DNA from: a virus
Virus record (IMG/VR): IMGVR_UViG_3300045988_043362
Location: 1-38,592 of that record
Strand: one strand, 5' to 3'
Length of the DNA stretch: 38,592 nt
The notes beneath the pieces were generated by a model that had not been told where the DNA came from, did not search any database, and worked only from the letters and a program-made list of their open reading frames with translations. The translations under genes and the position numbers were made by a program. Shown here piece by piece: positions 2,763-34,064 of the stretch (its first letter is position 1; each line of letters begins with the position of its first letter).

Positions 2763-3236
2763 ATGACAGAACGAGATATTCAAGATGCATTAGGACGGCA
2801 TCTATTTCTTAAAAATATATGTATACCAAATGTGATGATGAGGGATAGTGGGAAACCACCTTATGAGGCTGACTTTATCTACTTCAACTTAAACACTTTG
2901 CATTTAACAGAAGTTGAAATCAAAACTGATATAAACGATTTTAGGAATGATTTCAAAAAAGCACGTTACCATGACAATCACAATGTTATGTATTTGTATT
3001 ATGCAGTACCTAGAGAATTGTACGATGATCATTATGAAGTAATCGATAAAATGCTTGGTGATGCTGGTTTAATCTTAATCGATGAAATAAATACATTTGA
3101 TTTTCGAGGTAATCTTTATGATTTTGGCGGTTTTGTAAAGAGAGCAAAACGAATAAAAGGTTCTGTTAAATTGAACGAAAAGGAAAAGGAATACTATATG
3201 AGAATTGGGTGTATGAAATGGGTGAATAGATGGTAG
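2763..3236 (+). CDS. PD-(D/E)XK nuclease-fold protein, MmcB-like
   Basis: YEADFIYF...LTEVEIKTDINDFRNDFKKARYH...YLYYAVP fits the D...E-x-K core and the MmcB-family layout. Confidence 0.45.
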   Translation: MTERDIQDALGRHLFLKNICIPNVMMRDSGKPPYEADFIYFNLNTLHLTEVEIKTDINDFRNDFKKARYHDNHNVMYLYYAVPRELYDDHYEVIDKMLGDAGLILIDEINTFDFRGNLYDFGGFVKRAKRIKGSVKLNEKEKEYYMRIGCMKWVNRW

Positions 3237-4012
3237 TAATAAAAATAGAACTATTTAATGATAACTTTCAAAATTTTAAGCGATATGGAATACCAAAGGC
3301 ACAGTTAGTTATTGCTGATATTCCTTACAATCTAGGAAACAATGCCTATGCAAGTAATCCTATGTGGTATGTAAATGGCAATAACGAGAATGGGGAAAGT
3401 AAAAAGGCTGGTAAAGCATTCTTTAATTCTGATTACAACTTTAACATTGCAGAGTATTTTCATTTCTGTAATAGGTTGTTAAAAAAAGAACCTAAAGAAA
3501 GAGGTCAAGCGCCATGCATGATAGTGTTTTGTAGTTATCAGCAACAACCAATGGTTATCGAATATGCAAAAAAACATGGGTTTAAGAATTATATTCCTAT
3601 CACGTTTAACAAAAATTATAGTGCGCAAGTTTTAAAGGCAAATATGCGTATTGTAGGCGCTACAGAATATGCATTAATTTTGTATCGTGAAAAGTTGCCT
3701 AAATTCAATAACAACAAAAAAATGATATTTGATCACTTTGAATGGAAACGTGATAACAAGAATATCGTTCCTAATATTCACCCAACGCAAAAGCCTGTAA
3801 GTGTATTGAAACGATTGATAGAAATATTCACAGATGAGGGCGATGTGGTGATTGACCCTGTAGCTGGTAGTGGTAGCACATTAAGAGCGGCTATGGAATT
3901 AGGAAGAAGTGCTTATGGGTTTGAAATCGATAGAAGAATGTACGCTAAAGCAAAAGAAGAAATGTTAAGCGATGTAAAAGTACAAACAAATTTAATGGAG
4001 TTTGCAGAATAG
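3230..4012 (+). CDS. Site-specific DNA methyltransferase (beta-class N6A/N4C)
   Basis: Motif IV-like VIADIPYN is N-terminal. HPTQKPVSVLKRLIEIFTDEGDVVIDPVAGSGSTLRAAMELGRSAYGFEID (SAM-binding motif I) is C-terminal. Confidence 0.85.
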   Translation: MVVIKIELFNDNFQNFKRYGIPKAQLVIADIPYNLGNNAYASNPMWYVNGNNENGESKKAGKAFFNSDYNFNIAEYFHFCNRLLKKEPKERGQAPCMIVFCSYQQQPMVIEYAKKHGFKNYIPITFNKNYSAQVLKANMRIVGATEYALILYREKLPKFNNNKKMIFDHFEWKRDNKNIVPNIHPTQKPVSVLKRLIEIFTDEGDVVIDPVAGSGSTLRAAMELGRSAYGFEIDRRMYAKAKEEMLSDVKVQTNLMEFAE

Positions 4013-7522: not shown

Positions 7523-7717
7523 ATGACACAGGTACATTGCGATAGAAAGCATTGCTTGAACAATGATAAATATGGAATATGCACGGCTGATGCAATAGAA
7601 TATAACGGCTTGTGTCAAACGTATATAACGGCTAAACATTCTTGTAAACCACATTGCGGAATATGTCGCAAGGATAAAGGCAAGTTAAAACGGAAAGGCG
7701 GTGAGGTTCTTAAATAA
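7523..7717 (+). CDS. Cys-rich small protein, DUF1540-like
   Basis: HCDRKHCLNNDKYGICTADAIEYNGLCQTY fits the C-x2-3-C-x-N...C-x-A...C spacing of DUF1540. An AGAGGG RBS is present. Confidence 0.45.
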   Translation: MTQVHCDRKHCLNNDKYGICTADAIEYNGLCQTYITAKHSCKPHCGICRKDKGKLKRKGGEVLK

Positions 7718-8748
7718 TGGAAATTGTAACAAAAAGCTTACATGAATTAACTCCATATGATAAGAACGCACGCAAGAATGATAAAGCCGTTCCGTTAGTA
7801 GCAAAATCAATTGAATTATTTGGGTTTAAAGTGCCGATTGTAATTGATAGAAATAATGTAATTGTATGTGGACATACCAGATATAAGGCAGCACATGCAT
7901 TAGGTATTGAAGAAGTACCTTGTATTATTGCTGATGATCTAACAGACCAACAAATAAAAGCGTACAGGTTAGCAGACAATAAAGTAGCCGAGGTATCGAA
8001 ATGGGATAAAGGTATTTTGTCATTGGAAATGAATGAAATATTTGATTTCGATATGTCGGACTTTGGATTTGAAATTGCTGATCCAGTAGACACAGTTGAA
8101 ATAGAATTACCGCAAAAGGAAAACGAGCGTGAGCGTACGGCTAATGCATATAACTTGTATGATTTTGATGAAAACAGATGCACAGGGATATATGACATAC
8201 CTACACTGGATAAGGTGATACACACGCCGAAGTCGTTAATGGGGTTTAATTATTGCAAAAGTACACCGCCACAAGAAGGCGTAGGGGTTCATTTCTTCCT
8301 TGATGATTATCAATTTGAAAGAGTATGGAATAGTCCGGAAGATTACTGTACCATGCTTGCAGATTATGATTGTGTATTAACGCCTGATTTTAGCCTATAC
8401 ACGAACATGCCAATAGCGATGATGATATGGAATACATACAGAAGTCGCTTAATCGGTCAAATGATGCAAGATTATGGGTGTACGGTTATTCCTACTGTGT
8501 CATGGGCTGGTACAGATAGCTATGATTTCGCTTTTGATGGACTACCAACAGGCGGAGTGATAGCGGTATCAACTATAGGCGTTAAAAGAAGTAAAGATGC
8601 ATTTGATATATGGGTACAAGGTATGGATGAATGCATGAAAGTAGTTAAGCCGCATAGCGTAATTGTATATGGCGGTGATATTGGGTATACATTTGATTGC
8701 GATGTAACATATATCAGCAATTCAGTAACTGACAAGATGAAAGGGTAA
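7717..8748 (+). CDS. ParB-like nuclease domain / DUF4417 fusion protein
   Basis: The N-terminus LTPYDKNARKNDKAVPLVAKSIELFGFKVPIVID...CGHTRYKAAHALGIEEVPCII is a ParB/Srx fold. The C-terminal GVHFFLDDYQFERVWNSPEDY...PDFSLYTNMP...NTYRSRLIGQ is DUF4417-like. Confidence 0.75.
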   Translation: MEIVTKSLHELTPYDKNARKNDKAVPLVAKSIELFGFKVPIVIDRNNVIVCGHTRYKAAHALGIEEVPCIIADDLTDQQIKAYRLADNKVAEVSKWDKGILSLEMNEIFDFDMSDFGFEIADPVDTVEIELPQKENERERTANAYNLYDFDENRCTGIYDIPTLDKVIHTPKSLMGFNYCKSTPPQEGVGVHFFLDDYQFERVWNSPEDYCTMLADYDCVLTPDFSLYTNMPIAMMIWNTYRSRLIGQMMQDYGCTVIPTVSWAGTDSYDFAFDGLPTGGVIAVSTIGVKRSKDAFDIWVQGMDECMKVVKPHSVIVYGGDIGYTFDCDVTYISNSVTDKMKG

Positions 8749-26411: not shown

Positions 26412-27317
26412 ATGGCTTCTATTTATCCAAATACACGATTAACCAATTATGGCCGTGAGTTAATCGCAAGATCACAAGCAACAGGTAAGAAGTTGCAGTA
26501 TATTAAATTAGTTACGGGGGACGGCCAGCTCGATAATCAAAATATCGATACTATGACTTCCGTAATAGCTCCAAAATTGGAGTGTCCGTTTACCTCTAAT
26601 GGTGAATTCGTAGGAGACGGTCAATTTAGAATTGAATTTGCAGTAGGCAATAGTACGGTAACTAATGGATTCTTTGCTAGGGAATTAGGCGTATATGCTA
26701 ATTTAGAAGGTGAATCTGATTCCGCTGCTAGATTAATTGCATATAGTAATGGCGGTAACTACGCATCCTATATCCCGTCCAAAGAGACGCCAATCAATTC
26801 TAAAGTGTTCTCTTTAGATGTTGTAATTGGCAATTCTACCAATGTAACCGTTAAGAAGATTGATGCGGCATATCTGACTAGAGGTGCATTAGAGGCCCAT
26901 AGCCGTGACACAAGTGCGCACGCTCCTATCACAGACCAAATCAAAGCAATCCTAGGCAGTGCTAACTGGAAAGACTCTCCGGCAAGTACGCTTGTTACAA
27001 TTAAAAACTTACTAGGCCAAGGCGCTATCGTGGCATCTAAACTCGATGCTAATGCCGGTTTCGTAAAATTTGCCAATGGTTTCACTATCCAGTGGGGAAC
27101 TGGTGGCCAAGATAATGTAACCAAGACAGAAGTAACATTCCCTATTCGTTTTAAGACTCTATTCATGGCAAATGCGATTGATGCGTATTGGAGTGGGTCA
27201 GAGACACCAAGATATTTTGCAAACTCTGTAAGCGAAAGCAACAATACAAAAGCTGTATTTGTGGCGAGTGATAGATATGCTGCATCATATTACTGGTTCG
27301 CACTAGGGATTATTTAA
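26412..27317 (+). CDS. Tail fibre protein (tail-collar N-terminus; currently expressed C-terminal variant A)
   Basis: The N-terminus TNYGRELIARSQATGKKLQYIKLVTGDGQL is tail-collar-like. The C-terminal tip follows FTIQWG, and crossover core CCAGTGGGG lies at 27089-27097. Confidence 0.85.
   Translation: MASIYPNTRLTNYGRELIARSQATGKKLQYIKLVTGDGQLDNQNIDTMTSVIAPKLECPFTSNGEFVGDGQFRIEFAVGNSTVTNGFFARELGVYANLEGESDSAARLIAYSNGGNYASYIPSKETPINSKVFSLDVVIGNSTNVTVKKIDAAYLTRGALEAHSRDTSAHAPITDQIKAILGSANWKDSPASTLVTIKNLLGQGAIVASKLDANAGFVKFANGFTIQWGTGGQDNVTKTEVTFPIRFKTLFMANAIDAYWSGSETPRYFANSVSESNNTKAVFVASDRYAASYYWFALGII
27089..27097 (+). repeat. Recombination core site A (CCAGTGGGG) inside the fibre gene
   Basis: It covers the Q227-W228-G229 codons. 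The identical 9-mer occurs inverted at 27540-27548 and 27828-27836. Confidence 0.75.
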
Positions 27318-27547
27318 TTACCTACTGCGATATATCTGCCCCAAGCACTAGTTTTATTTAATCCATCTTTCGCCGCCTGAGAATATACTTTAACCCCTGT
27401 TCTAGTATGCTCTCTAAACGAATGGACCTGGTTATCAACATTGTTACCATTCACGTCATTACCAACTACTACGTAACACTCTCTATCAAAGGAAACAGGA
27501 AATGAAATTGTACCCCCTATTGGTATGTTATTAAACGCTCCCCACTG
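27314..27547 (-). other. Silent tail-fibre C-terminal cassette B (no start codon; expressible only after inversion)
   Basis: Hand translation of the minus strand: QWGAFNNIPIGGTISFPVSFDRECYVVVGNDVNGNNVDNQVHSFREHTRTGVKVYSQAAKDGLNKTSAWGRYIAVGN*. The frame is closed by a TAG 9 codons upstream of Q. Confidence 0.75.
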
Positions 27548-27548
27548 G
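27540..27548 (-). repeat. Recombination core site B (inverted CCAGTGGGG)
   Basis: The plus strand reads CCCCACTGG. The minus-strand frame continues as QWG plus 74 aa. Confidence 0.75.
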
Positions 27549-27592
27549 AGATAGTTTAATAAGTGCCTATAGGACTACGGCATGGGAGTAGG

Positions 27593-27835
27593 TAATTAGC
27601 TGATTCCAACGCACAGCCATGTAAAGTTGCCGGCGTTGCCTCGATTAGTTAAAAAGCGAATAGATGTTCTGTTATTATTTGAAAATCCACTATTCCAAGA
27701 CACAAAGAACTCATCACCTCTTGTGTTTGTACTTGCGGAGTCGTCGGTACATAATGCGACTAAAACATTACACCTGATAGGCAATGTTACATCACAATAT
27801 GTATTTTGATTTAAGAACCAAGTTAGCCCCCACTG
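27593..27835 (-). other. Silent tail-fibre C-terminal cassette C (no native start; ORF track shows its distal part as 27596..27784)
   Basis: Hand translation of the minus strand: QWGLTWFLNQNTYCDVTLPIRCNVLVALCTDDSASTNTRGDEFFVSWNSGFSNNNRTSIRFLTNRGNAGNFTWLCVGIS*. Confidence 0.75.
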
Positions 27836-27836
27836 G
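27828..27836 (-). repeat. Recombination core site C (inverted CCAGTGGGG)
   Basis: The plus strand reads CCCCACTGG. The minus-strand frame continues as QWG plus 77 aa. It lies 5 nt from the recombinase stop codon. Confidence 0.75.
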
Positions 27837-27840
27837 GGAG

Positions 27841-28692
27841 TTACTTTAGTAACTCAATGGCTTTTCGTAACTCACGAATAGTCTTATGAGTGTATACTCT
27901 AGTGGTAATATCACCTTGTTTGTGGCCTAGTAATGAGCGCAAAGCGTTAGGCGGTGCGACCGAATCAAGTAAACTTGCGAATGTGTGTCTGGTATCGTGG
28001 ATAGTATGCTTACAATTTAACTGTTTCATAATATTTTGAAAATGCTTACGGAATGTTGTGTAACTTACAGTAAATAGATAATCATCAGTATATATATATA
28101 ACAGTTCTATTAGCGGTATAATGCGACGATGTAATGGGATGATACGACCCTCGCTCGCTTTTGTTTTAGCGTGCCTTACGATGAGATATGATGATCGTCT
28201 ATAGATGTCTTGTTTTCGCAAATTAAGAAGCTCACCTATGCGGAGGCCTGTGTATAGCAGTATTAAAATCATACGGGAATAAGGAGTATCTATTGCCCAT
28301 AATTTGTTGATTTGTTGGCGAGTAAATACTTTTCGCTGAATCGTCGGTATATTGGGCCCTAGATTTAAGTGTAAGGCGTAATTAGTGATAGGGTAATCTT
28401 TAATGATTGCGTAATTAAATAATTGATTAAGTAGTGTACGGACTTTCTTACAAGATGAGTAGGAAAGTCCTTTTACGTGCATGGAATTAATCACATTTTG
28501 AAGGTGCTGAAAATGAATATCCGTGATAGGCATATCCGCTATGTTGGATATGTGTTTAAAAGCAATGCGATAAGACTTAACAGCGCTATCAGAAATAGAC
28601 TGAGAGTGAATAGGCAACCACTCGTTAAATAGTTGCCTTAATGTAATGGTATTGCGTTGTCTACGTTTTAGCATAACAGCGTAACGGCGCAT
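27841..28692 (-). CDS. Tyrosine recombinase (phage-integrase fold), proposed tail-fibre shufflon invertase
   Basis: The catalytic set is readable: YTGLRIGE (R), AKTKASEGR (K), HDTRHTFAS (HxxR), LLGHKQ (H), TRVYTH (Y). It is the only minus-strand gene in the late region and abuts site C. Confidence 0.85.
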   Translation of the reverse strand: MRRYAVMLKRRQRNTITLRQLFNEWLPIHSQSISDSAVKSYRIAFKHISNIADMPITDIHFQHLQNVINSMHVKGLSYSSCKKVRTLLNQLFNYAIIKDYPITNYALHLNLGPNIPTIQRKVFTRQQINKLWAIDTPYSRMILILLYTGLRIGELLNLRKQDIYRRSSYLIVRHAKTKASEGRIIPLHRRIIPLIELLYIYTDDYLFTVSYTTFRKHFQNIMKQLNCKHTIHDTRHTFASLLDSVAPPNALRSLLGHKQGDITTRVYTHKTIRELRKAIELLK

Positions 28693-28718
28693 AATTTCAC
28701 CTCCGAAAGGATACGACT

Positions 28719-29111
28719 ATGAATCAATATGTATTTGTGTTAAACGAAATGGGCGAACGAATTACGTCCTATGTTGATAATACAGTAACGCAAGAGCAGT
28801 TATTAGCAACTGCAAAACAAGAATGGCCAGATGCAGCAGATTATATTTACTCTGCAGATGGTGATAGCATGCTAGATGAATTTATGGGCGGTAAATTCTA
28901 TATAGACGGCAAGTTTGTTGTACCGCAAGCAAAGGAACCTACTAAGGCCGAAAAAATCGCGGAAATTAGAAACTATTACAACGATCGCTTTGAAACATTA
29001 GAGCAAACGCTGTTAAGAAGACGATTGATCAACGGCGACATTACCGACTTGCAAGAACAATTCAAAAAGCTCAATCAAGAAATGGTGTTAAAAATTAAGG
29101 CGGTGAAATAA
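28719..29111 (+). CDS. XkdW-like / putative tail-fibre assembly protein
   Basis: Called on position after the fibre locus. The C-terminal helix is PTKAEKIAEIRNYYNDRFETLEQTLLRRRL. The call is weak. Confidence 0.35.
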   Translation: MNQYVFVLNEMGERITSYVDNTVTQEQLLATAKQEWPDAADYIYSADGDSMLDEFMGGKFYIDGKFVVPQAKEPTKAEKIAEIRNYYNDRFETLEQTLLRRRLINGDITDLQEQFKKLNQEMVLKIKAVK

Positions 29112-29275: not shown

Positions 29276-30730
<1,455 letters not shown>

Positions 30731-32469: not shown

Positions 32470-32517
32470 AAGCCTACTAGCTTAGATAAAAATCTTTGTT
32501 AGTAGGCTTTATTTTTT
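32470..32517. terminator. Bidirectional terminator between the convergent lysis operon and integrase gene
   Basis: aagcctacta (32470-32479) pairs with tagtaggctt (32500-32509) around a 20-nt loop, followed by tATTTTTTT. An A/T-rich tract also lies on the other side. Confidence 0.65.
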
Positions 32518-34064
32518 TAGAATGGTATAATTAAACGCAGCGGATAATGTGAATTTGCAATATAAAAGTGGTTCGTACAGCGTGTCATATGCACCACCAT
32601 ATCGCATGAGTGCGAACATTCAATGGCCTGTTCCTTAAATTGGGGCAGGTCATTACTATAATTGAATATAATTTCTACCCTATCATCAAATATGGTGGCT
32701 TGCTTTATGAAAGTATCGATAATGCTTGCTCTGCCTTGCTTGGTGGTAGGGTTTTCTTTTGCCATTTTGTGTAGAAAGAATTCTATATGCTCTGCAGTTA
32801 ATTGGATTTGATTGCTTGCCATTTCATGGTTCGCACGGTGTGTCATGTGGTCTTGTAATTCCGCCTCTGTTTTCTCTATTTGATTTTGTAACGTATCTGA
32901 TATGAACCCTTTGGCAATTGCTTTCATGTAATTATCTAATTCTGATTGCAATTGTTCGATACGATCATTAATCGATTGTAATTCTAATTCACTTGTACTC
33001 ATCATATCCTTATTAGCTTTGATGGCTAATTCTGCCAATTGCTCGATAGTATTCGGTTGGTTCAATATCTCAAGTGTTTGGTTGATTACGATATCCTCAA
33101 CTATTTCACGTTTTAGATTTGGCGCATCGCAAGTGTGATGTTTTCGTCTATTGTTACACACATAATAGTAATGCTTTTCTCCACTACGAGAAGTTGCCGT
33201 AGAGCCTACGTAATGAGCGTTACACTTTCCGCAATATAATTTACCGCATAGATTATAAAACTCGCTCCTAGATGCCTTTAATTTAATTCTACGGCTATTC
33301 GCTGATTGCACTTTATCAAATATTTCTTTTGAAATAATAGAAGGAATAGCATCTTCTACTATAATGTCGTTCCATTTCATGATGCCGATGTATTTCTCAT
33401 TGCTTAAAATGCGTCTAATTACCGCATATGAGAATTTTCCGCCTTTCTTGGATAAATACCCTTTGGAGTTTAGAAACGAGCATATAGAGGGGATAGAGTG
33501 TCCTTTTAGGTACATTTCAAAGATACGTTCTACTATTTTGGCCTCGTGTTTGTTAATGATGAGTGAATTGTCATTTGTCTTATCATAGCCTAGCGGTGTA
33601 GGTGTGCCGTTCATCTTGCCTTTTAATGCATTGTCAGTCATACCACGTCTAACCTTTTGAGCCAATTCTGCACTATAATATTCCGCCATGCCTTCTAATA
33701 CAGATTCAAGGATAATGCCAGCTGGGTCGCTACTGATATTTTCCTTTGCACTTATCACCTTAACACCATTACGTTTTAGAATGGACTTGTATACGGCACT
33801 ATCCTCACGGCTACGGCTAAAGCGGTCTAATTGGTATACAATAACATATTCAAAATTATGTTTCTTTGCATCGTCAATCATTTGGCGGAACTCTGGGCGG
33901 TGGTCTGTACGTGCTGATAATGCTTTATCTGTGTATATATGAGTGATAACAATACCTTCACGCTCTGCATATTCCTTGCACTCTCTTATTTGTCCTTCTA
34001 TTGATTCATCACGTTGTTTGTCTGATGAATATCTAGCGTATATTACACCTTTTGATAATTCCAT
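32517..34064 (-). CDS. int: Large serine recombinase (prophage integrase)
   Basis: The N-terminal resolvase domain is GVIYARYSSDKQRDESIEGQ...VIVYQLDRFSRS. The recombinase domain and zinc ribbon are CGKLYCGKCNAHY...YYYVCNNRRKHHTCD. The C-terminus is a coiled coil. Confidence 0.9.
   Translation of the reverse strand: MELSKGVIYARYSSDKQRDESIEGQIRECKEYAEREGIVITHIYTDKALSARTDHRPEFRQMIDDAKKHNFEYVIVYQLDRFSRSREDSAVYKSILKRNGVKVISAKENISSDPAGIILESVLEGMAEYYSAELAQKVRRGMTDNALKGKMNGTPTPLGYDKTNDNSLIINKHEAKIVERIFEMYLKGHSIPSICSFLNSKGYLSKKGGKFSYAVIRRILSNEKYIGIMKWNDIIVEDAIPSIISKEIFDKVQSANSRRIKLKASRSEFYNLCGKLYCGKCNAHYVGSTATSRSGEKHYYYVCNNRRKHHTCDAPNLKREIVEDIVINQTLEILNQPNTIEQLAELAIKANKDMMSTSELELQSINDRIEQLQSELDNYMKAIAKGFISDTLQNQIEKTEAELQDHMTHRANHEMASNQIQLTAEHIEFFLHKMAKENPTTKQGRASIIDTFIKQATIFDDRVEIIFNYSNDLPQFKEQAIECSHSCDMVVHMTRCTNHFYIANSHYPLRLIIPF

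Follow-up and report, generated by a model that had tools for sequence, protein, structure and literature searches.

Tail-fibre gene, tip cassettes and crossover cores

We analysed a stretch of 38,592 nucleotides of viral DNA (the window; IMG/VR virus record IMGVR_UViG_3300045988_043362, positions 1 to 38,592), an almost complete temperate Veillonella myophage of ~40 kb from the human mouth, and concentrated on its tail-fibre gene (26412..27317, plus strand, 301 amino acids, aa), the two inverted tip cassettes that follow it and an adjoining tyrosine recombinase gene (27841..28692, minus strand, 283 aa). The first 229 residues of the fibre (26412..27097, plus strand), which end in ...GFTIQWG, match PHROG tail fibre (2e-33) and the N-terminal region of Pfam Phage_tail_fib. 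This constant part begins with a tail-collar-like region at the N-terminus and reaches into the tip domain, whose first strands it supplies; it is 92–100% conserved in ~80 relatives, regardless of the tip. The currently expressed tip, cassette A, comprises 72 codons and a stop (27098..27317, plus strand). Two silent cassettes are open frames on the minus strand that begin at inverted copies of a short core, namely cassette B with 74 codons and a stop (27314..27539) and cassette C with 76 codons and a stop (27596..27827). Each cassette starts with the core over codons for Gln-Trp-Gly (QWG). An in-frame stop precedes QWG by 9 (B) and 6 (C) codons, an interval that contains no start codon, and the stop of B (27314–27316) overlaps the fibre stop tail to tail. 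An earlier note, made from the letters of the window alone, had described much of this anatomy. Its account of B as QWG plus 74 aa, of the tail-to-tail overlap and of cassettes that lack a start and are closed upstream was confirmed, as was the intact QWG frame of C, but C is QWG plus 76 aa instead of 77, with its stop at 27596–27598 instead of 27593–27595.

The 9-base-pair (bp) core CCAGTGGGG occurs exactly three times in 38.6 kb, in agreement with the earlier note, with 0.10 copies expected and 0/100 shuffles giving three. Site A (27089..27097, plus strand, N-class, with the left flank ...TTTCACTAT) spans atC-CAG-TGG-GG, that is Ile226-Gln227-Trp228-Gly229 of the fibre, and thus lies on the Gln227-Trp228-Gly229 codons as had been claimed. 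Sites B (27540..27548, S-class) and C (27828..27836, R-class) are copies on the minus strand; site C with its flanks forms the near-palindrome TCCCCAGTGGGGG, and the recombinase-proximal, C-type site is near-palindromic in the form TCCCCAGTGGGG(A/G). The sites are short and asymmetric, with conservation from about -7 to +9 only; the left flank is conserved to ~-7 and the right flank is specific to the cassette. The left triplet TAT is kept at the gene site in 42/42 recombinase-bearing loci, whichever cassette follows, and TCC at the recombinase-proximal site in 39/40 loci. Bases -3 to -1 remain with the position, not with the cassette, and base 9 (G, or T in a further cassette type, D) moves with the cassette (15/15 cases). 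Because base 9 moves and bases -3 to -1 stay, strand exchange appears to be limited to the 8 bp CCAGTGGG, within which cleavage would take place. Tyrosine recombinases have a 6–8-bp overlap region and serine recombinases a 2-bp crossover, so that an exchange window of at most 8 bp fits tyrosine and not serine recombinase chemistry.

When fused to the constant strand, the cassettes match positions 1–84 of Pfam Gp53-like_C (PF21882; A 1.2e-10, B 1.3e-11, D 5.9e-7), and the tips are mutually 28–35% identical in an alignment that includes the shared 13-residue constant strand. The structure prediction that the earlier note had proposed for all three tips is at hand for tip A. The AlphaFold model of the A-tip fibre is confident for residues 205–301 only (predicted local distance difference test, pLDDT, 78–89; residues 1–202 below 50), and this tip part, used alone for structure comparison, has its matches in the foot at the C-terminus of R1/R2 pyocin fibres and in AP22 gp53 (6ct8, 6cl6, 4mtm). 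QWG is located in strand 224–231 of the model, and the crossover therefore lies inside the tip domain, which according to the model is split, its first strands coming from the constant part and the remainder from the cassette. QWG is a structural motif of Gp53-like_C domains and is also present in PDB 9zd7. Homologous pyocin and phage tip domains function in receptor binding, and by analogy the alternative tips may bind different receptors. A diversity-generating retroelement was set aside as the source of tip variation, since the tips differ as whole cassettes and not at scattered positions, no search aimed at a reverse transcriptase having been made. Gene callers list silent or downstream cassettes as separate 87–90-aa 'Gp53-like_C' genes with starts in the spacer (e.g. 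L001 4928–5200, L110 6909–7172), and automated annotation therefore hides the switch.

Rearranged states and module conservation

Rearranged states were compared between assemblies of different genomes. In simulation, inversion at A x B and at A x C restores the cores and yields in-frame proteins of 303 and 305 aa, which reproduces the simulation of the earlier note. A search with the fibre recovered proteins whose first 229 residues are ~99% identical and are followed after QWG by cassette C or by other tips. With the simulated A x B fusion as query, more than 120 proteins of 303 aa were found at ≥94% identity, the best of which (P0241) is identical at 302/303 positions (I234V) and 94% identical in its DNA. 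Cassette B is likewise expressed in loci L035, L022, L044, L110 and L114, all of which are in state [B+ A- C-...], the A x B product, with breakpoints exactly at the cores. Cassette C is joined to the constant part in proteins P0081, P0091, P0095 and P0098, with P0091 identical to the simulated A x C product at 295/305 positions, and in loci L001–L003, L032 and L036. Loci L001–L003 are in state [C+ A+ D-], and the junctions of L001 are hybrid, one consisting of the A-left flank, core and C-right flank and the other of the B-left flank, core and A-right flank.

A census of 47 recombinase-bearing switch regions, window included, gave for the cassette set {A,B,C} the states A+B-C- (n = 5), B+A-C- (n = 3) and C+A+B- (n = 3), for {A,D,C} the states A+D-C- (n = 7), D+A-C- (n = 2) and C+A+D- (n = 4), and for {A,C} the states A+C- (n = 2) and C+A- (n = 2). 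All of these arrangements are inter-convertible through inversions between oppositely oriented cores, and every major cassette type, cassette A among them, was seen in both orientations. The complete chromosome of V. parvula UTDB1-3 (L020, A+ C-) and a metagenome-assembled genome (MAG) from infant gut (L025, C+ A-) have flanks that are 99.7% and 98.6% identical, and the 498 bp between their cores are 100% identical as reverse complement.

The silent cassettes, of which relatives hold one to five, are under purifying selection equal to that on expressed copies, as judged from the ratio of nonsynonymous to synonymous polymorphism (pN/pS, silent/expressed: A 0.16/0.13, B 0.19/0.25, C 0.33/0.31, D 0.09/0.06). 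Disrupted frames and an unconserved core in relatives, which the earlier note had named as signs against a switch, are rare: 138/140 cassettes are intact and, where the recombinase is present, the core reads CCAGTGGG[G/T] in 116/117 sites. One third cassette is frameshifted (L049, QWGLNLV*), the third core of L044 has changed to CCAATGGGG whereas its system is otherwise of the CCAGTGGGG type, so that this cassette may be locked, and L095 carries a 120-aa hybrid cassette resembling the outcome of a deletion that joined two cassettes. Assemblers break contigs where both junctions coexist in a sample. For 59 contigs truncated downstream of the constant part, the break lies ≤3 nt from the 3' end of the core in 15 (binomial P ~1.6e-28) and ≤76 nt away in nine more; one contig whose recombinase is 100% identical (L005) ends exactly at site B.

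Recombinase, cassettes and core go together. All recombinase-bearing loci have two or more cassettes (46/46), which supplies the count of cores and cassettes in relatives that the earlier note had suggested. Among recombinase-less loci with at least 1.5 kb of downstream sequence, 20/21 have a single tip. In four aligned loci of the latter kind, the next gene (homologue of 28719..29111) directly follows the fibre stop (16 nt in L067). The 1.4 kb corresponding to 27318–28718 are cleanly absent without the recombinase, and cassettes and recombinase therefore constitute one presence/absence module. Recombinase-less relatives keep the QWG peptide while their DNA drifts at synonymous positions (atT, caA, ggT/ggA). 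A second Veillonella phage lineage (L016, L094, L096, L101, L104), with a fibre N-terminus ~50% and a recombinase ~51% identical, has the core CCAATGGGG in 22/22 sites and up to six cassettes of other types (L016, L104, L101). On this covariation, the CCAGTGGGG and CCAATGGGG systems appear to be a natural orthogonal recombinase/site pair.

Recombinase, proposed mechanism and alternatives

The recombinase is an armless Xer-like tyrosine recombinase and the putative fibre-tip invertase. It has a SAM-like N-terminal core-binding domain and a catalytic domain (Pfam Phage_integrase, 1.8e-20) and no arm-binding domain. The catalytic set reported in the earlier note was found as R151, K176/178, H232, R235, H257 and Y267. 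In PDB and NCBIfam it comes closest to XerA/XerC/XerD, with every match under the family cutoff. The stop codon is placed at a fixed distance of 4 nt from site C. The gene is situated within the late tail operon rather than at either end of the prophage, and is transcribed from the strand opposite to that operon. Co-occurrence with cassettes, selection on the core, covariation of core and recombinase and the chemistry of exchange all point to this adjacent enzyme as the probable catalyst.

We assign a probability of about 0.85 to the interpretation that the phage carries a shufflon here, a system of multiple inversions by which the myophage tail fibre exchanges its receptor-binding tip. The multi-site tip switch by a tyrosine recombinase proposed in the earlier note is supported by inversion products in assemblies, by co-occurrence and by the presence of a separate serine integrase. 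The recombinase would pair the gene core with an oppositely oriented core, exchange strands inside the 8 bp and invert the intervening DNA, and each inversion would bring another ~75-codon cassette in frame behind the 229-codon constant part. One inversion would convert the window, [A+ B- C-], to [B+ A- C-], and a second would yield [C+ A+ B-]. Because the recombinase is encoded on the strand opposite to the late operon, switching would probably take place in lysogens or while the phage replicates. Virions released by a lysogenic population would then differ in their tips and hence in receptor or host-strain specificity.

Several findings weigh against such a switch. The closest pair in differing states, L020 and L025, are two genomes and not one culture. 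A same-strain inverted copy of the window, sought by exact junction patterns, was not found. The A-left/B-right junction search gave one viral contig (L113) of a different strain (94%), the A-left/C-right pattern gave no match, and the B-left/A-right search gave one metagenome contig (L114, OGZV01000382.1), whose A/B segment is 99.35% identical to the window in a background of 83–90% identity; the flanks of L110, L113 and L114 are 83–94% identical to the window. Strain mixtures fixed in different states would produce the same contig breaks at cores, which makes these breaks supportive and not decisive. The match of cassette C to Gp53-like_C is weak (1.3e-3, below the Pfam cutoff). The fourth reachable state, C+B+A- or C+D+A-, was seen in 0/24 three-cassette loci (11 with {A,B,C}, 13 with {A,D,C}), and the other three states occur 2–7 times each per cassette set; the simple model leaves this missing state unexplained, which could reflect sampling, relatedness or a real site-pair bias. 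Lastly, states with directly repeated sites exist, and the model offers no explanation for the avoidance of deletions between them.

Part of this evidence could also be read as a static mosaic, in which the inverted cassettes are leftovers of past rearrangement or horizontal exchange, the arrangements are fixed strain differences, and switching is gone or proceeds over evolutionary time only. Every rearranged relative of the window differs by at least 5% in flanking DNA, the highly similar A/B segment of L114 in its diverged background indicates that modules also spread by ordinary recombination, and the frameshifted cassette of L049 and the mutated core of L044 are cases of decay. We nevertheless consider fixed leftovers improbable: silent cassettes are constrained like expressed ones and almost all intact, synonymous core bases are conserved only where the recombinase is present, L020 and L025 are near-identical genomes with an exact inversion of an identical segment, contigs break at the cores, and a 9-bp repeat is below the length sufficient for RecA-type homologous inversion. 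If inversion is accepted, it could still be catalysed by another enzyme, i.e. the large serine recombinase of the window (32517..34064), a host Xer protein or another invertase in trans, with a different role for the tyrosine recombinase. Trans-acting invertases are known, such as Mpi of Bacteroides (cited in PMC6109161), and the serine recombinase has partial PHROG 'DNA invertase' matches. The serine enzyme has the architecture of a large serine integrase, however, and the ≤8-bp exchange window does not suit a 2-bp serine crossover; the tyrosine recombinase accompanies silent cassettes in all loci that have it and is missing from nearly all single-tip relatives as one 1.4-kb indel, a G to A change in the core tracks its lineage, and its stop keeps its distance from the last site. 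Catalysis by another enzyme is accordingly very unlikely. Least credible of all is that the tyrosine recombinase is a plain prophage integrase or Xer-type resolvase and that the 9-mers recur because QWG is a conserved tip motif. Databases do name the protein 'integrase' or 'tyrosine-type recombinase/integrase', and QWG recurs in PDB 9zd7 and persists in relatives that lack the recombinase, but the motif accounts for the amino acids and not for identical synonymous bases, promoterless inverted cassettes and hybrid junctions are left unexplained, the gene lies inside the late tail operon, and a serine integrase is already present beside the lysis module.

A shufflon catalysed by the adjoining recombinase might also be mobile as a unit. 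The DNA on the recombinase side of L023 and L057 is 100% identical and their fibre N-termini are unrelated; recombinases 87–90% identical to that of the window sit behind fibres of just 37–44% identity (L017–L025 among the loci), and the same recombinase (~88–90% identical) with the same cassette types is found behind fibres of 37–53% identity. Tentatively, cassettes and recombinase may travel together as a portable tip-switch module (at least ~1.4 kb) from one fibre N-terminus to another, unrelated one, the non-random occupancy of states may hint at control of directionality or topology without an Rci-like C-terminal domain, and the system may be widespread and actively generate host range in Veillonella phages of the human mouth and gut; we regard this wider picture as possible but doubtful.

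Known systems, phage and host

The earlier note had taken the arrangement to be uncharacterised in a PBSX-like Firmicute-type myophage. It has precedents, as phage tyrosine-invertase shufflons of receptor-binding proteins (RBPs) have been published from 2018 on (PMC6109161, PMC8778435, PMC13596623). The Rin shufflon of the Bifidobacterium prophages Bb423phi1 and Bl157phi1 was introduced as the first tyrosine invertase encoded by a phage and acts on RBP C-termini (Mavrich et al. 2018, PMC6109161); Eggerthella lenta prophages have the same RBP shufflon architecture (PMC8778435). The region studied here shares with Rin a gene for a constant RBP N-terminus, several small promoterless variable C-terminal cassettes (at least two in the window), a short, asymmetric and rare repeat heading each cassette (11 bp in Rin, 9 bp here), an adjoining armless Xer-like tyrosine recombinase separate from the phage integrase, and rearranged versions between related genomes; for states within a population, contig breaks at cores are indirect evidence. 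It differs from Rin in host (Actinomycetota there, Negativicutes here), in virion (a siphophage with TP901-1-like RBP or H-type lectin there, a contractile tail with Gp53-like_C/pyocin-foot tips here), in core (TTCCCTAACCC there, CCAGTGGGG here) and in the position of the core, which here is inside the tip domain on the conserved QWG strand. The likeness to Rin is one of architecture. None of the 33 tblastn records from the phage collection (E ≤ 1e-8; 25 itemised, together with a tally of organisms) was from Bifidobacterium. BV01-like phages of Phocaeicola vulgatus have a tail-fibre shufflon of which all configurations were detected in reads (2026 preprint, PMC13596623). It similarly comprises a recombinase-flanked region of ~1.7 kb over the tail-fibre gene's distal end with three cassettes and 10-bp directional motifs, and differs in host, fibre and motif (TGGGAGAACT) and in that its activity is proven by reads, whereas the states described here are known from assemblies.

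More distant systems share parts of this logic. The earlier note had drawn an analogy to the R64/IncI shufflon (Rci, sfx, pilV), which holds for the logic, i.e. a tyrosine recombinase, multiple inverted short asymmetric sites and the swapping of adhesin C-termini on a constant N-terminus, but not for recombinase family, sites or target. The recombinase is 23% identical to Rci (NC_005014) over 243 aa, has 283 instead of 384 aa and lacks a counterpart of Rci residues ~275–384, a C-terminal extension of ~100 aa; sfx sites consist of a 7-bp core and a conserved 12-bp arm, and their target is the pilus adhesin PilV, in contrast to CCAGTGGGG and a phage fibre here. The resemblance to R64 is thus in logic only and the window's system is not a member of that family. 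The fibre switches Mu Gin, P1 Cin, e14 Pin and p15B Min also join alternative fibre C-termini to a constant N-terminus by inversion, Min at multiple sites too, but use a serine invertase, and hence a catalyst of another family and chemistry. A small Hin/Gin-family serine invertase was not found in the window, whose only resolvase-domain protein is the 515-aa large serine recombinase, nor were 26-bp gix/cix-type sites or co-inverted fibre-assembly (U/U') genes seen there. In type I restriction-modification hsdS shufflons with tyrosine recombinases, e.g. pneumococcal ivr/CreX and Mycoplasma pulmonis hsd (survey PMC9881135), an adjoining tyrosine recombinase and short inverted repeats in coding sequence likewise move silent partial genes into an expressed locus; their target, however, is the restriction specificity subunit, and their repeats are usually longer and placed in conserved coding regions. 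The mid-genome tyrosine recombinases of phiHugo (Fusobacterium) and Idris (Butyrivibrio) were rejected as analogues because they adjoin lysis/lysogeny genes and are ordinary integrases. A literature search for fibre inversion in Veillonella phages found no paper. The kind of switch has been published before; new in this case are its host lineage and type of virion, the fold of its tips, its core sequence and the lineage of its recombinase.

The human mouth and gut are colonised early by Veillonella, which is abundant there; to our knowledge very few of its phages are characterised. The module occurs in hundreds of public contigs, with more than 3,000 fibre homologues and more than 1,100 recombinase homologues annotated just as 'hypothetical' or 'integrase'. 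If the switch is active, one prophage genotype would give rise to virions with two to six receptor specificities, which would affect host-range prediction, phage assembly (through breaks at cores) and strain-level phage-host dynamics. It would extend tyrosine-recombinase fibre shufflons from phages of Actinomycetota and Bacteroidota to a Negativicutes myophage with pyocin-type tips. The compact recombinase and short site (~17 bp with an 8-bp exchange region), in the orthogonal CCAGTGGGG/CCAATGGGG pair, may also serve as a multiplex inversion tool.

Relatives of the window are found in Veillonella genomes and MAGs, including the V. parvula UTDB1-3 chromosome (NZ_CP019721, with the prophage fibre near 1.097 Mb), and in many metagenome contigs from human mouth and gut. 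The phage itself is represented in the samples ENA ERZ27263334 (contig k119_57718, 100% identical), ERR589709 (with a contig that stops at site B), ERR589421 and SRR19487532 (with a contig that stops at site A). On account of the Veillonella genomes and MAGs the host is Veillonella, a diderm Negativicute. This corrects the earlier note, which had written of a PBSX-like Firmicute-type myophage; in Pfam matches the tail module resembles PBSX/skin (YQBQ, XkdT-type baseplate). As DNA, the switch region had no match in 50,697 deposited phage genomes, and protein searches of deposited phages gave identities of at most 34% (recombinase) and 36% (fibre N-terminus). The window further encodes terminase, portal and head proteins, and its tail genes comprise sheath, tape measure, a YQBQ-like protein, baseplate J and a Mu gp48-like protein. 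In the early region are genes for a DNA methyltransferase (3230–4012) and a ParB-like nuclease (7717–8748), both usual in temperate phages. No tRNA genes or Rfam families were detected in the window. Downstream genes include a collagen-like second fibre, an endolysin and the large serine recombinase (32517..34064, minus strand, 515 aa), which is CcrB/XisF-like, matches Pfam Resolvase, Recombinase and Zn_ribbon_recom and PHROG integrase (8e-123), and lies at the lysis/lysogeny end beside the lysis module, 4.7 kb from the switch. It is the probable prophage integrase and context only, outside the switch; the phage thus likely has recombinases of both families with separate roles.

Two minor elements flank the crossover sites. 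The left flank of site B is a spacer (27549..27595), delimited on its translation and an inverted repeat. The plus-strand translation of 27549–27598 ends in ...YGMGVGN*, similar to the …IAVGN* with which a B-type cassette finishes, and faces C tail to tail in the same layout as A and B; a fourth cassette, since lost, probably left this segment behind. Beside site C and overlapping the recombinase stop is a perfect hairpin with a 7-bp stem (27838..27855, plus strand, GAGTTAC-TTTA-GTAACTC), a terminator-like match to consensus only, which may act as a terminator, as an insulator between the array and the recombinase gene, or as an accessory binding site. In the promoter and terminator scan of the window, promoter-like matches were fewer than in shuffles and were given no weight. 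A similar inverted repeat is retained in the recombinase-proximal flank of relatives. The second fibre-like protein (29585–30730, plus strand) contains runs of collagen G-X-Y and, three times over, the motif EPF[KR]YSDFT[AQ]EQLxAL[KR]GPKGD, and its homologues among relatives have 381, 402 and 443 aa, with just 72–85% identity at the DNA level.

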